From positions 78,258 through 142,257 of the forward strand of contig JBFXGO010000001.1 of NCBI GenBank assembly GCA_050239825.1: DNA of 64,000 nt. The letters are read 5' to 3'. Positions 9,462 to 62,793 of this stretch are shown in pieces; position 1 is the first letter of the stretch; each line of letters begins with the position of its first letter. The notes below the pieces were generated by a model, which saw only the letters and a program-made list of their open reading frames with translations, was not told the DNA's origin and made no database searches. Source of the DNA: a bacterium. Lineage in GTDB: Bacteria > Hydrothermota > 32-111. The translations under genes and the position numbers were made by a program.

Positions 9462-10926
9462 TTCGTTGCAATACTTTATATTTTTCCCATTAGTAGCTGT
9501 TTTTTATTTTATAATCCCATTCAATTATCGCTGGATATGGCTTCTTTCAGCCAGTTTCTATTTTTATATGGCTTGGAAGCCGGAGTATGTTGTTCTTATG
9601 ATTGCGGCGATTCTCATAAATTACTCTGCGGGAATAATGATTCAAAGAAGCAGAAAAAAAGAATGGAAAAAATTTCACATGCTGTTTGGAGTATGCGCCA
9701 GTTTCTTTATTCTTTTCGTTTTTAAATATTTCAATTTCATTAACTCATCTGTGAGGGCTCTGTTTTCTTATTTCGGCATGGATTATCCCATAAGCGGCCA
9801 CAGTCTGCTACTGCCCGTGGGCATATCTTTTTACACCTTCCAGACTTTAAGCTATACTATTGATGTTTACAGGGGTAAAGAAAAAACGCAGAAGCATCTC
9901 GGAATATTTGCTCTTTATGTAACTTTCTTTCCCCAACTGGTTGCAGGACCGATAGAAAGATCCACAAATCTTTTGCCGCAATTCTTCAAAAAAAATGCCT
10001 TTGACCTGCAGAGGGTTCTTGACGGAGGAAAACTTATACTTTGGGGGCTTTTTAAGAAAATTGTAATTGCGGACAGACTTGCCGTTCTTGTCAATACGGT
10101 TTTCAACAACCCCCACGGTTATTCGGGGTTCCAATTTGTGACTGCAATAGTATTCTTTGCGTTTCAGATATACTGTGATTTTTCAGGTTACTCCGACATA
10201 GCCATAGGAAGCGCTCAGATAATGGGGTACAAGCTGATGGATAATTTTAACAGGCCATACTTTTCCAAATCTATTTCAGAGTTTTGGAAACGATGGCACA
10301 TATCGCTTTCAACATGGTTCAGGGATTATCTGTACATACCCATGGGAGGAAGCAGAACCTCAATTCCCAAGTGGTATTTCAATCTGTTTGTCACATTTCT
10401 TGTCAGCGGAATATGGCACGGGGCAAACTGGACATTTGTGGCATGGGGGGCATTGAACGGCCTTTACATTGTGCTTGAGACAGCGGGTATGAAGAGAATC
10501 AAGAGGATTGAAAATAAATTGAGATTGAATGAACATAAGACTTCGCTGAAAATCTTAAAAATCTCAACAACATTTTCCCTTGTTCTTTTCGCCTGGATTT
10601 TTTTCAGAGCGAATACAATTTCGGATGCTATATATGTGATATCAAATATCCCTAAAAATTTCATGGCGACATTCTGGGAAATCGCCACATTGAATGAACA
10701 TGCACTTAAGAAAATGGGAATAGAGAGAGTGGATTTTGTGATTTCCATAGCTGTGATACTCTTCATGGAATCAGTGCATGCGCTTCAGAGGCACAGGGGC
10801 ATTCGCTCAATGCTGAAAAAGAAGCCTCTGGCTTTGAGATATGTGGTTTATGCGGCATTTATCTTTGGAATAATTGTTTTCGGCACCTATATCAATTCCG
10901 CATCATTCATCTATTTCCAATTCTAA
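9451..10926 (+). CDS. MBOAT family O-acyltransferase (AlgI/DltB-like)
   Basis: LPVGISFYTFQ, FFPQLVAGPIER, YCDFSGYSD, FWKRWHISLSTWFRDY, SGIWHGANW, C-terminal FIYFQF. Confidence 0.95.
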   Translation: MLFNSLQYFIFFPLVAVFYFIIPFNYRWIWLLSASFYFYMAWKPEYVVLMIAAILINYSAGIMIQRSRKKEWKKFHMLFGVCASFFILFVFKYFNFINSSVRALFSYFGMDYPISGHSLLLPVGISFYTFQTLSYTIDVYRGKEKTQKHLGIFALYVTFFPQLVAGPIERSTNLLPQFFKKNAFDLQRVLDGGKLILWGLFKKIVIADRLAVLVNTVFNNPHGYSGFQFVTAIVFFAFQIYCDFSGYSDIAIGSAQIMGYKLMDNFNRPYFSKSISEFWKRWHISLSTWFRDYLYIPMGGSRTSIPKWYFNLFVTFLVSGIWHGANWTFVAWGALNGLYIVLETAGMKRIKRIENKLRLNEHKTSLKILKISTTFSLVLFAWIFFRANTISDAIYVISNIPKNFMATFWEIATLNEHALKKMGIERVDFVISIAVILFMESVHALQRHRGIRSMLKKKPLALRYVVYAAFIFGIIVFGTYINSASFIYFQF

Positions 10927-20058: not shown

Positions 20059-20084
20059 GAAAAGATTATTATTTGTTATTCGCT

Positions 20085-21115
20085 GATGGCAGGCGTAGCG
20101 TCGGCTCGCACACTCCGCTTCGCCGCTTTATCAAGATGGGATAGCGGAGCAAGGAGAGAACCACTTGATGGGCGTCTGCGCGGAGCGTCCTCGCCGACTT
20201 GTAGCTTTCACTTTCAATAAGTTAATTAATTGAATGAATCTTCTAAAACCATTGGCGCGGGTGTAATGTGCGCGAACGTCCATGATAGAAAGAACGGGTT
20301 GCACCAGAAGTTTTAGAAGATTACTGAAAAGACTAAATATTAATCAACTCCCCGTATTAAGCTCATGGCACACGGCACACGGCTCAGGGCTGATTTAGTG
20401 GCTGCACGCGGGCATAGCATCGGCTCGCACACTCCGCTTCGCCGCTATATCAAGATGGGATAGCGGAGCAAGGGGAGAACCACTTGATGGGCGTCTGCGC
20501 GGAGCGTCCTCGCCGACTTGTAGCTTTCACTTTCAATAAGTTATTTAATTGATTGAATCTTCTAAAACCATTGGCGCGGGTGTAATGTGCGCGAACGTCC
20601 ATGATAGAGGTATCGGGTTGCACCAGAAGTTTTAGAAGATTACTGTAAAGAATAAATATTAATCAGCTCCACGTATTGTATTTAAACTCGCAACTCGTAA
20701 CCCGTAACTCGAAACTGAATTATCTTTTAATATTGATGACTGCACTGGAATTTTTCCTCGGAACTGTAAAGGCAAGTCATTTACTCATCTCTCCGTATTT
20801 TGCTCATGGCACATGGCTCAAGGCTCAGGGCTGATTTTGGGGGCTGCTGGCAGGCGTGCGTCAGCTCACACACTCCGCTTCGCCGCTTTATCAAGATGGG
20901 ATAGCGGAGCAAGGGGTCGCCCACTTGATGGGCGTCTTCGCGGAGCGTCCTCGCCGACTTGTAGCTTTCACTTTCAATAAGAACCTGTTGTGGGGACACA
21001 CCGAAGGAATGTCCCCAAACATTGAATAGCAGTGCGGAGATGCACTGGAATTTTTCCTCGGAACTGTAAAGCCAAGTCATTTACTTAATTCTCCGTATTA
21101 TGTTTAAACTCGTAT
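20085..21115. repeat. Non-coding mosaic array 1 of hairpin modules with three copies of the 99-nt core
   Basis: Core copies at 20100-20198, 20419-20517 and 20860-20958. 13-bp inverted-repeat module at 20237-20322 and 20556-20641. GGGGACA/TGTCCCC hairpin near 20990. Heptamer tracts at 20361, 20685 and 20802. Confidence 0.95.
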
Positions 21116-21199
21116 TCAGCACCTCTTTGCCTTTTAACCTTTTTACTTTTTTTACCCAGTACATATTATATTGTAATTGTAATTTAGAGACATTATCTA

Positions 21200-23932: not shown

Positions 23933-23935
23933 GAA

Positions 23936-24016
23936 TGCCGGGGAAGGGACTTGAACCCTTACGGGAATCCCACACGCCCCTTAAACGTGCGCGTCTGCCA
24001 GTTTCGCCACCCCGGC
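23936..24016 (-). tRNA. tRNA-Leu with anticodon AAG
   Basis: Reverse complement GCCGGGGTGGCGAAACTGGCAGACGCG CACGT TTAAGGG GCGTG...GGGTTCAAGTCCC TTCCCCGGCA; long variable arm; anticodon loop TT-AAG-GG; CCA not encoded. Confidence 0.9.
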
Positions 24017-24028
24017 ATGTAAAAGAAG

Positions 24029-24101
<73 letters not shown>

Positions 24102-33670: not shown

Positions 33671-33671
33671 T

Positions 33672-33745
33672 GCACCCGTAGCTCAACTGGACAGAGCGGC
33701 GGATTCCGGTTCCGCAGGTTGAAGGTTCGAATCCTTTCGGGTGTA
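33672..33745 (+). tRNA. tRNA-Arg(CCG)
   Basis: GCACCCGTAGCTCAACTGGACAGAGCG GCGGA TTCCGGT TCCGC...GGTTCGAATCC TTTCGGGTGTA. Confidence 0.93.
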
Positions 33746-33875
33746 AAATAAGGTATTGACTTTTTTATAATTCTGTATAATAATATATAAAAAAGAAGGA
33801 GGAAAAATTAATAAGAGCGGTCTTGTTAAAAAATCAGTTTTCAAAGGAAACATGTTAAACCAAATAGGAGGTACA

Positions 33876-52196: not shown

Positions 52197-54500
52197 CATT
52201 GTACAGAGAAGCGCTGTGGACAGGCTTCTCATTCGGAACTGTAAAGGCAAAATCTTTCTCAACCGTGTCACCCTGAACGCCTCTATGGTTATGACTATCG
52301 TGAAGGGTCTATCAGTTTATTGTTAATTGAAGTTTGTTTATAGGCTACTGACGGGTGTAGCGTCGGCTCACACACTCCGCTTCGCCGCTTAATCAAGATG
52401 GGTTAGCGTAGCAAGGAGACAACCATTTGATGGGCGTCTTCGCGGAGCGTCCTCGCCGACTTTAAGCTTTCGTATATCAATAAGTTAATTAATTGTTTGT
52501 TGCAGTGGGGACACACCGAAGGAATGTCCCCACATTGGCGAGGGCGTAATGGACGCGAGCGCACATGATAGACGCCTTGGGCTGCACCAGAACTTTGTGA
52601 AGATTACTGTAAATACAAAATCTTACTCAGCAGTGTCACCCTGAACGCCTCTATGGTTATGACTATCGTGAAGGGTCTATCATTTGATTGATTATTGATA
52701 ATTGAAGATTGAGCTGGGGCTGCACGCGGGCGTAGCGTCGGCTCACACACTCCGCTTCGCCGCTTTATCAAGATGGGATAGCGGAGCAAGGAGACAACCA
52801 CTTGATGGGCGTCTGCGCGGAGCGTCCTCGCCGACTTGCAGCTTTCGTGTATCAATAAGTTAATTAATTGTTTGTTGCAGTGGGGACACACCGAAGGAAT
52901 GTCCCCACATTGGCGAGGGCGTAATGGACGCGAGCGTCCATGATAGAAAGAATGGGTTGTACCAGAAGTTTTAGAAGATTACTGAAAATACAAAATCTTA
53001 TTCAACAGTGTCACCCTGAACTACGCTTTAGTTATGACTATCGTGAAGGGTCTATCATTTGATTGATTATTGATAATTGAAGATTGAACTGGGGCTGCAC
53101 GCGGGCATAGCGTCGGCTCGCACACTCCGCTTCGCCGCTTAATCAAGATGGGATAGCGGAGCAAGGGGTCGCCCACTTGATGGGCGTCTTCGCGGAGCGT
53201 CCTCGCCGACTTGTAGCTTTCGTGTATCAATAAGTTAATTAATTGTTTGTTGCAGTGGGGACACACCGAAGGAATGTCCCCACATTGGCGAGGGTGTAAT
53301 GTGCGCGAGCGCACATGATAGACGCCTTGGGCTGCACCAGAACTTTGTGAAGATTACTGTAAATACAAAATCTTACTCAGCGGTGTCACCCTGAACGCCT
53401 CTATGGTTATGACTATCGTGAAGGGTCTATCAGTTGATTGATTATTGATAATTGAAGATTGAGCTGGGGCTGCTGGCGGGCTTAGCGTCGGCTCACACAC
53501 TCCGCTTCGCCGCTTTATCAAGATGGGTTAGCGGAGCAAGGGGTCGCCCACTTGATGGGCGTCTTCGCGGAGCGTCCTCGCCGACTTTAAGCTTTCGTGT
53601 ATCAATAAGTTAATTAATTGATTGTCCTCATGAGAAGCATTGTACAGAGAAGCGCTGTGGACAGGCTTCTCATTCGGAACTGTAAAGACAAAATCTTACT
53701 CAACTGTGTCACCCGGAATTATTCAGTAGTTATGACTCAACAATGTCACCCTGAACGCCTCTATGGTTATGACTATCGTGAAGGGTCTATCAGTTGATTG
53801 ATTATTGATAATTGAAGATTGAGCTGGGGCTGCACGCGGGCATAGCGTCGGCTCACACACTCCGCTTCGCCGCTTTATCAAGATGGGTTAGCGGAGCAAG
53901 GGGTCGCCCACTTGATGGGCGTCTTCGCGGAGCGTCCTCGCCGACTTTAAGCTTTCGTATATCAATAAGTTATTTAATTGATTGAATCTTCACAAAGCAT
54001 TGGCTTGGGAGAAATGTGCGCTAACGCACATGATAGAGGTATCGGGTTGCACCAGAACTTTGTGAAGATTACTGTAAAGACAAAATCTTACTCAGCAGTG
54101 TCACCCTGAACGCCTCTATGGTTATGACTATCGTGAAGGGTCTATCATTTGATTGATTATTGATAATTGAAGATTGAGCTGGGGCTGCACGCGGGCGTAG
54201 CGTCGGCTCACACACTCCGCTTCGCCGCTTTATCAAGATGGGATAGCGGAGCAAGGAGACAACCACTTGATGGGCGTCTGCGCGGAGCGTCCTCGCCGAC
54301 TTGCAGCTTTCGTGTATCAATAAGTTAATTAATTGTTTGTTGCAGTGGGGACACACCGAAGGAATGTCCCCACATTGGCGAGGGCGTAATGGACGCGAGC
54401 GTCCATGATAGAAAGAATGGGTTGTACCAGAAGTTTTAGAAGATTACTGAAAAGAATAAATCTTGCTCAGCTCCCCGTATTTTGCTCACGGCTCATGACT
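52197..54500. repeat. Non-coding mosaic array 2: six tandem units of about 355-375 bp
   Basis: 99-nt core at 52362, 52737, 53112, 53487, 53847 and 54202 (spacing 375, 375, 375, 360, 355), interleaved with TGTCACCCTGAAC...GAAGGGTCT, GGGGACA/TGTCCCC and CATTG...ACTGWAAA modules. Confidence 0.97.
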
Positions 54501-54595
54501 GACTTGGTTGGCAACAGCGTAACCGCTCATCATCCCTTGACTATTATTTTTTTATACATACAATATATGTGTTATTTTAATTATAGGAGGATTTT

Positions 54596-62716: not shown

Positions 62717-62793
62717 GGGCGAATGGCTCAGTTGGTCAGAGCGCCGGTCTCACATACCGGAGATCACAGGTTCAACTCCTGTTTCGCCCACCA
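62717..62793 (+). tRNA. tRNA-Val(CAC)
   Basis: GGGCGAATGGCTCAGTTGGTCAGAGCG CCGGT CTCACAT ACCGG...GGTTCAACTCC TGTTTCGCCCACCA. Confidence 0.93.

Follow-up and report, generated by a model that had tools for sequence, protein, structure and literature searches.

Several families of palindromic non-coding repeats are known from bacterial genomes. ERIC/IRU elements of Enterobacteriaceae are 127-bp imperfect palindromes, which lie between genes and are mostly solitary. NIMEs of Neisseria and the pneumococcal BOX elements are modular arrays of recurrent non-coding pieces bounded by hairpin-forming repeats. For repetitive extragenic palindromes (REPs), passages of PMC3733652 describe GTAG-tagged families with coexisting loop variants and tandemly reiterated clusters, together with genes that resemble the REP-associated tyrosine transposases (RAYT) and are flanked by terminal inverted repeats (TIR), the TIRYT genes. 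The families published there kept GTAG in more than 90% of their members, with degeneracy at positions 2-3 and not at position 1. According to a passage of 10.1101/279083, the DNA on which Y1 enzymes act is single-stranded and lies at the lagging-strand template. Here we analyzed a stretch of 64,000 nt (the window; positions 78,258 to 142,257 of contig JBFXGO010000001.1, forward strand, assembly GCA_050239825.1) from a bacterium of the Hydrothermota (lineage 32-111), in which a 99-nt core was repeated in two arrays. With a probability of roughly 0.55, this core is the long module, an imperfect palindrome, of a mosaic repeat that is non-coding, present in many copies and specific to one genus, and that is similar to REP/BIME, ERIC and NIME elements; its hairpin would form in single-stranded DNA and would be needed for spread, probably by Y1 enzymes.

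The core shared with ERIC/IRU elements a length of about 100-130 nt, the intergenic position, the imperfect palindrome and the insertion or deletion variants inside it, but ERIC elements do not occur in arrays of mosaic units. Modular non-coding arrays with hairpin repeats were common to NIME and BOX elements and to the present repeat, whereas the modules and their sizes were different, and here one 99-nt hairpin per unit dominated and orientation followed the GC skew. As in REP, BIME and REPIN repeats with RAYT, the core was a high-copy (104 cores) extragenic palindromic stem-loop with a covarying stem. Unlike REPIN or BIME, the core units were arranged head-to-tail every 288-419 bp without inverted doublets, and a single core orientation was kept throughout 42 of the 43 arrays in the genome. 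The GTAG-tagged REPs, as described in passages of PMC3733652, have complementary stem subfamilies, alternative loops, clusters with linkers and RAYT-like genes in the genome, all of which were also seen here, and an unpaired tag ending in TAG by the foot, to which the tag of the core corresponded in part; these REPs measure 20-40 bp, whereas the core had 99 nt (77 or 114 nt in its variants) and five helices with a total of about 31 bp, and its tag was NTAGC with a variable first base. In contrast to a REPtron, no Y1 gene was flanked by the core, and the flanks were other inverted repeats. Like the TIRtron/TIRYT elements outlined in parts of PMC3733652 and of 10.1101/279083 (subclass 2.1), the genome carried four Y1 genes with 25-36-nt inverted repeats; their terminal repeats formed moderately abundant families, including doublets, in arrays and at array edges. 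The core, however, was not a copy of these terminal repeats and had only 7-8 of 9 terminal bases in common with them. A search of the literature on WOR-3/Stahlbacteria found no paper describing such repeats. The orientation bias of the arrays, the 5' NTAGC tag and the interweaving with Y1 terminal repeats are new findings of this study.

A pattern search of the window revealed nine cores, all on the + strand (starting at 20100, 20419, 20860, 52362, 52737, 53112, 53487, 53847 and 54202), while the count expected from dinucleotide shuffles was 0. The arrays and cores were located as follows.

52197..54503, + strand: array 2, with six mosaic units arranged head-to-tail (periods of 375, 375, 375, 360 and 355), each with one 99-nt core
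20064..21128, + strand: array 1, three units downstream of tgt
52737..52835, + strand: 99-nt core used as the exemplar; the 54202 copy has the same sequence
20100-20198, 20419-20517, 20860-20958, 52362-52460, 53112-53210, 53487-53585, 53847-53945 and 54202-54300, + strand: the remaining cores of the window

Self-BLAST depth placed array 2 at 130454-132760 and array 1 at 98321-99385 of the contig (C50), and TRF described array 2 as 6.1 copies of a 375-bp period. A preliminary description had reported nine copies of 99 nt each without indels. The alignment agreed with it, since every core differed by substitutions only; the only indel seen among the window copies lay outside the core, in the flank 5' of the 20860 copy. 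The variant starts ATCGGC (20419) and GTCAGC (20860) were also present as described, together with the repeated motifs GCGGAGC (core 45-51 and 81-87) and CCGCT (core 16-20 and 24-28) and the 7-bp complement CCGCTAT/ATAGCGG in the 20419 copy. The apical segment varied as described, and positions 9, 30, 42, 43, 48 and 79 were additional hot positions among the 91 genome copies of 99 nt.

The core forms one nested hairpin. From a 6-bp foot it continues through a conserved internal loop, two GC-rich helices and the ATCAAG..CTTGAT helix to an apex that is exchangeable, and an unpaired NTAGC lies 5' of the foot. The parts are given below for the exemplar core.

52732..52736, + strand: 5' tag GTAGC, unpaired, directly ahead of the basal stem
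52737..52742, + strand: 5' arm of H1, GTCGGC, partner 52830-52835 (GCCGAC); pairing in 97.7-98.9% of cells, both sides changing, and also predicted by RNAalifold
52743..52749, + strand: conserved internal loop TCACACA, facing GTCCTC at 52824-52829
52750..52755, + strand: 5' arm of H2, CTCCGC, partner 52817-52822 (GCGGAG); all 6 pairs change on both sides
52758..52763, + strand: 5' arm of H3, with two possible registers, CGCC/GGCG (22-25 with 72-75) or GCCGC/GCGTC (23-27 with 73-77)
52767..52776, + strand: 5' arm of H4, ATCAAG-A-TGG, partner 52798-52806 (CCA-CTTGAT); 100% of cells paired
52777..52797, + strand: variable apex, core 41-61, swapped for a GTGGGGACA...TGTCCCC hairpin in eight genome copies
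52836..52842, + strand: 3' flank TTGCAGC, TTGTAGC in most copies; a weak pairing with GCTGCA at 52719-52724 or a second direct GTAGC

The structure was evaluated in an alignment of 90 rows (87 distinct) from the window, 17 further loci of this genome, the sister species G001 and G002, and eight metagenome loci, which was fitted to a covariance model built from the nine window copies with the nested structure of the preliminary description. Standard pairs occupied 93.6% of the nested cells, compared with 91.5±0.2% after shuffling (0/500) and 32-53% when the partners were slid, although the alignment leaned towards this structure because its rows had been fitted to a model that carried it. Among the 87 distinct copies, changes on both sides were found in 16 of the 31 nested pairs against 4.7±1.4 in shuffles (0/500), and H2 was the strongest helix. 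RNAalifold, run on the same alignment, predicted H1, H2 and the basal part of H4, 13 pairs in total, of which 10 had compensatory changes. The single strand folded into a long nested stem, as it had been read by eye, was thus recovered independently as well as through covariation. A separate pair count was made on 116 distinct cores, leaving out the single 104-nt G002 variant among the 117 collected. Pair 16/84 was CG in 86 cores, TA in 13, GC in 4 and TG in 10; pair 18/82 was GC in 110 and TA in 4; pair 31/70 was AT in 106 and GC in 9; and pair 17/83 was CG in 99, with 13 C·A mismatches. For H3, register 22-25/72-75 had one pair with changes on both sides, and register 23-27/73-77 had 6 doubly changed cells compared with 1.4 in shuffles, yet showed a C·T mismatch in 82 of the 87 rows. 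The single-sequence folding energy was unexceptional (z from -0.6 to -1.8 against shuffles, as RNA or DNA and on either strand). The minimum-energy fold of the + strand (-49.9 kcal/mol) used a competing helix of CTCCGC with the first GCGGAG, and the structure of the preliminary description had -39.3 kcal/mol. Thermodynamics alone did not separate the core from shuffles; the support for the fold was the covariation.

The sequence around the foot was also conserved. GTAGC stood ahead of 81 of the 124 core starts and NTAGC ahead of 117. On the 3' side, TTGTAGC followed 54 of 106 cores and ..AGC followed 103. The proposed extension of the stem by the flanks GCTGCA/TGYAGC was weak, with 76.7% of cells paired and TGYAGC after just 60 of the 106 cores.

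A switch or pseudoknot had been suggested on the basis of an alternative pairing of CCGCT(AT) with (AT)AGCGG, which was located as follows.

52760..52784, + strand: core 24-30 and 42-48, the two arms of the alternative or pseudoknot pairing, which was proposed but found no support

The alternative pairing was standard in 74.4% of cells compared with 74.2% in shuffles (248/500), and double changes were not in excess. Its end pair 30/42 was TA in 34 copies, AA in 20, TT in 19 and AT in 17, as expected for statistical independence. At pair 24/48, C·T was found in 34 of 90 copies, and G48 was T in about 40% of copies. In the sister-species copies the pairing was broken without compensation, and its 3' arm was wholly missing from the 114-nt and 77-nt variants. 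With no covariation, with uncompensated breaks and with its absence from the length variants, the switch or pseudoknot is not supported. The competing helix of CTCCGC with the first GCGGAG, paired in 90.2% of cells compared with 89.6% in shuffles (34/500), showed no covariation either; when the 5' arm changed to CTTTGC or CTTCGC in sister-species copies, the distal GCGGAG compensated but the proximal one did not. A protein-coding repeat was rejected because no frame was open in all copies and the best frames had a stop in 33-38 of 85 copies. The variable columns were distributed over the codon phases as 15, 17 and 11, without the phasing of a coding sequence, and no Pfam match was found in the 95-97-aa open reading frames (ORFs) that spanned cores.

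The whole assembly (2.1 Mb, 67 contigs) was searched for the core. The blastn search gave 120 high-scoring segment pairs, 104 of which were near-full cores with lengths of 99 nt (91 copies, 85 distinct), 114 nt (8) or 77 nt (5). The constant length is therefore a property of the main subfamily only. In all length variants, only the apex or the inner helix was altered. In the 114-nt form, the apex AGCGGAGCAAGGGGACAA was replaced by the GTGGGGACA...TGTCCCC hairpin, which was also seen on its own, as a module at other places in the units. In the 77-nt form, the entire ATCAAG..CTTGAT helix and the apex were replaced by a short TCTCGGNAGACCTCGA piece, and the closing pair toggled jointly between A-T and G-C. 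The 104-nt variant of G002 had different inner-stem sequences but retained the foot GYCGGC/GCCGRC and the unpaired TCACACA and CGTCCTC, so that the facing TCACACA/GTCCTC loops were preserved even there. Since the variants kept the outer stem and the loops, the outer part is constant and the apex is exchangeable. In the linkers between cores, a perfect 9-bp hairpin, GTGGGGACA-N11-TGTCCCCAC, recurred at 52510-52540, 52885-52915, 53255-53285, 54345-54375 and 20990-21020 of the window. The GGGGACAC of this hairpin fitted the GGGGWSAS motif given for TIRYT repeats in a passage of PMC3733652.

The cores were grouped in 43 head-to-tail clusters with a total length of 43.2 kb, about 2% of the genome, with unit periods of 288, 320, 355, 375, 388 and 419 bp. 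The units were mosaics of recurrent modules, and the array ends were ragged, with many 3' ends stopping in the 5' flank or in the first 9-32 nt of the core. Fragments of the 5' half of the core (core 1-32, 1-35 or 1-44) were also present and were amplified as 90-nt units. Exact element ends and a target-site duplication were not definable, given the ragged array ends and an empty-site spacer that was too diverged. Spurious overlaps aside, all 43 arrays lay between long ORFs, and a rough ORF map assigned 17 to tandem, 7 to convergent and 9 to divergent gene contexts. Many of them were at contig ends, where the assembly broke. Linker modules of 7-nt periodic motifs (CAYGGCW repeated; CCGTAAC/CTCGTAAC repeated) were seen at 20330-20400, 20790-20840 and 54470-54500 of the window, and also at 20670-20720, often at the 3' edge of an array. 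Another module of about 37 nt, TGTCACCCTGAACGCCTCTATGGTTATGACTCAAC.., could be reiterated two or three times in tandem within a unit, as at 53690-53790 of the window and at C9:58560-58690 (reverse strand) of the genome (G000).

The core was found in one genus only. BLAST detected it in 3 of 41 relatives. Among 151 genomes sampled across the phylum, the covariance model gave hits in 3, which all belonged to the same one of 76 genera. A gapped-pattern scan of metagenomes gave 55 loci, 8 of which contained true copies with a total of 9 covariance-model hits; a 15-mer scan of contigs for the core gave chance matches only, in high-GC genomes. In the assemblies of the sister species, most copies were at contig ends. 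The distance from tgt to the next gene was 34 nt in G002 and 1144 nt here, and array 1 was absent at the same site; given this empty site, array 1 was either gained in the present genome or lost in G002. At the site of array 2, G001 also had array modules, and the contigs of both sister species broke there. The version of H2 differed between genomes with compensation: CTCCGC/GCGGAG here, CTTTGC/GCAAAG in a G002 copy, CTTCGC/GCGAAG in one metagenome and CTGCTY/RNNCAG in G001 copies. These genome-specific compensated stems point to recent amplification from master copies that kept the hairpin.

The orientation of the arrays showed a strand asymmetry. It agreed with the sign of the GC skew of the 15-kb flanks for 35 arrays, disagreed for 4 and was mixed for 4 (sign test p=3e-7), in counts in which arrays sharing one contig were not independent. 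It also agreed with the majority ORF strand for 31 arrays and disagreed for 8, with 2 ties, although replication and transcription bias were not separable because skew and gene strand go together here. The strand as written (+) was usually the G-rich, gene-sense strand, and would mostly correspond to the lagging-strand template.

Candidate enzymes for the spread of the repeat were found in the genome outside the window.

C5:4333-5109, C14:63662-64483, C56:11012-11902 and C18:43111-44016 (G000), outside the window: four RAYT/TIRYT-like Y1 (HUH) genes, 259-301 aa

The best NCBIfam match of these four Y1_Tnp genes was REP_Tyr_transpos (REP-associated tyrosine transposase) with 57-73 bits, under the cut-off of 80. 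In 2 of the 4 proteins, C-terminal matches of the helix-turn-helix type were found, mostly below Pfam's cut-offs. Each gene was bracketed by 25-36-nt inverted repeats, and the gene on C5 with its repeats adjoined the same tRNA in all three species. The end motif GGGACGGTGG was present at 36 sites, including two gene flanks and doublets spaced by about 200 bp that resembled miniature derivatives. Thirteen of these sites were in arrays (6 at the 5' edge, 6 internal and 1 at the 3' edge), and 12 of the 13 were co-oriented with the cores. Five of the 6 internal sites (C14 twice, C16, C39 and C54) directly followed a core that was cut at about position 32. The terminal 9-mers, TAGCGTCGG of the core tag and foot and TAGCGGCGG and TAGGGACGG of the transposase repeats, had the near-identical end TAGSGNCGG.

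Doublets of Y1 terminal repeats without a gene, 110-290 bp apart, were seen at C14:36255-36470, C28:13896-14110, C41:22136-22350 and C47:6392-6610 of G000 and looked like REPINs or miniature inverted-repeat transposable elements. Further doublets were at C22:10781-10910, C19:6836-6985 and 9972-10120, and C9:37880-38180. The involvement of TnpB/IscB guide RNAs was rejected, since no PF07282 match above the cut-off was found in the genome. A retroelement was also rejected, as the single reverse-transcriptase match of the genome (C17:34300-34725) was about 18 kb from the nearest array.

In the preferred explanation, a genus-specific mosaic repeat with a long hairpin module, the hairpin would form in single-stranded DNA and would be the feature that the element needs in order to spread. 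The most likely agents would be the RAYT/TIRYT-like Y1 transposases of the genome; the terminal repeats of these genes are also incorporated in the arrays. Arrays would grow and shrink by unequal recombination between units, and co-transcription with neighboring genes may occur, with side effects on mRNA. Several observations weigh against this explanation. Ragged and mosaic array ends do not give one fixed cut site, the units are head-to-tail, unlike the inverted pairs of REPIN and BIME, and the first base of the tag varies (G, A or T). The covariance model found no 99-nt core flanking any of the 4 Y1 genes (best E 0.19 nearby), and the defining REP-RAYT link is missing because no Y1 gene is flanked by the core. 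The likeness of the terminal 9-mers (8/9 and 7/9) may be due to chance. Y1 homologues were found in 30 of the 41 relatives, whereas the core was in one genus only. The orientation bias fits co-transcription with genes equally well, and mismatches of the wobble type were as common for either strand. A narrower version, which we consider doubtful, is that the tagged hairpin serves as a trans substrate of the TIR-associated Y1 transposases. It would then be a giant head-to-tail “REP” with its orientation locked to the fork through cutting and joining as single-stranded DNA on the lagging-strand template. To our knowledge, TIRYT enzymes have no repeat partner beyond their own ends. If the trans-substrate version is true, the core would be the first high-copy client of these enzymes and would represent a new array-forming mode of HUH-mediated spread.

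Whether the hairpin functions as RNA was considered in the light of the same data. The arrays could be transcribed alone or within untranslated parts of mRNA, where the hairpin would be a stabilizer, a processing or RNase III site, a decoy for a protein or a ribozyme. Helix covariation with pairs of the G·U type, the co-orientation of arrays with the local gene majority (31 vs 8) and a reading of the context table, in which 16 of the 17 tandem-gene contexts were co-oriented with both neighbors, are consistent with this. ERIC elements are known to act in RNA. The same is reported for REP elements in a passage of PMC3733652. Nevertheless, A·C mismatches, which would be wobbles only on the opposite strand, were as common as G·U, so that wobbles do not pick a strand, as the preliminary description had noted in pointing to both. 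Nine arrays lay between divergent genes and seven between convergent genes. A search against Rfam with E<=10 on 52200-54500 gave two chance-level matches only (a long non-coding RNA and P24) and no known ribozyme or RNA family, and at the gathering score the whole window had 4 tRNAs only. The array had 2 sigma-70 promoter-like sites compared with 3.6 expected in shuffles, neither of which was repeated from unit to unit, and it had no intrinsic terminator, in scans that may be ill suited to this phylum. With about 100 copies in ragged mosaic arrays, the core would be an unusual RNA gene and is more readily explained as a repeat element than as an RNA gene or ribozyme. An RNA module thus appears doubtful, and the core would be struck from the list of candidate riboswitch-like or ribozyme RNAs and filed with selfish or structural hairpin repeats.

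A passive satellite without a dedicated enzyme seems about as improbable as an RNA module. Such a satellite would spread by recombination, slippage and template switching at hairpins, and its pairing would be kept through arm-to-arm copying in repair. The ragged array ends with mosaic module junctions, the identical units within one array (52737 and 54202) and the amplification of the 5'-half fragments as 90-nt units are all in line with it, but the 43 separate loci, together with the empty site of a sister species, call for movement to new sites. Moreover, conservation was stricter in the unpaired loops and the NTAGC tag than in the stems, which hints that a protein recognizes these unpaired parts. 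That the cores are attC-like sites for recombination within an array of integron-like cassettes is very unlikely, even though attC sites are likewise folded single-strand imperfect palindromes in co-oriented arrays, with conserved unpaired bases and variable terminal structures. The RYYYAAC/GTTRRRY consensus boxes were not readable at the core ends, and the “cassettes” were a handful of recurrent non-coding modules with no conserved ORF in place of gene cassettes. The 43 arrays were scattered and did not form one integrase platform, and just 3 tyrosine-recombinase matches (untyped) were above the cut-off, none of them beside a window array. The preferred reading as a hairpin repeat places such repeats outside the Proteobacteria, in a little-studied phylum and at 2% of a genome. 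The orientation bias and the interleaving with TIR-flanked Y1 ends lead to a testable hypothesis on how long hairpins spread and on the targets of the widespread TIRYT proteins.

Some other features were noted in the window and elsewhere. The four tRNA genes of the window (Leu-AAG, Phe-GAA, Arg-CCG and Val-CAC) were at 23935-24101, 33671-33746 and 62717-62793, and none of them adjoined the window arrays. A second family of long hairpins had the same TAGCG tag and a CGTCCTC/ATCCTC motif and was seen at L005:716-864 and L022:792-940 (G000 C54), at L050:1873-2006 and L045:1796-1928 (G002), and at L232:772-872 (metagenome). In this family, a direct repeat of CTCATTCGC at both ends replaced the GTCGGC/GCCGAC foot.

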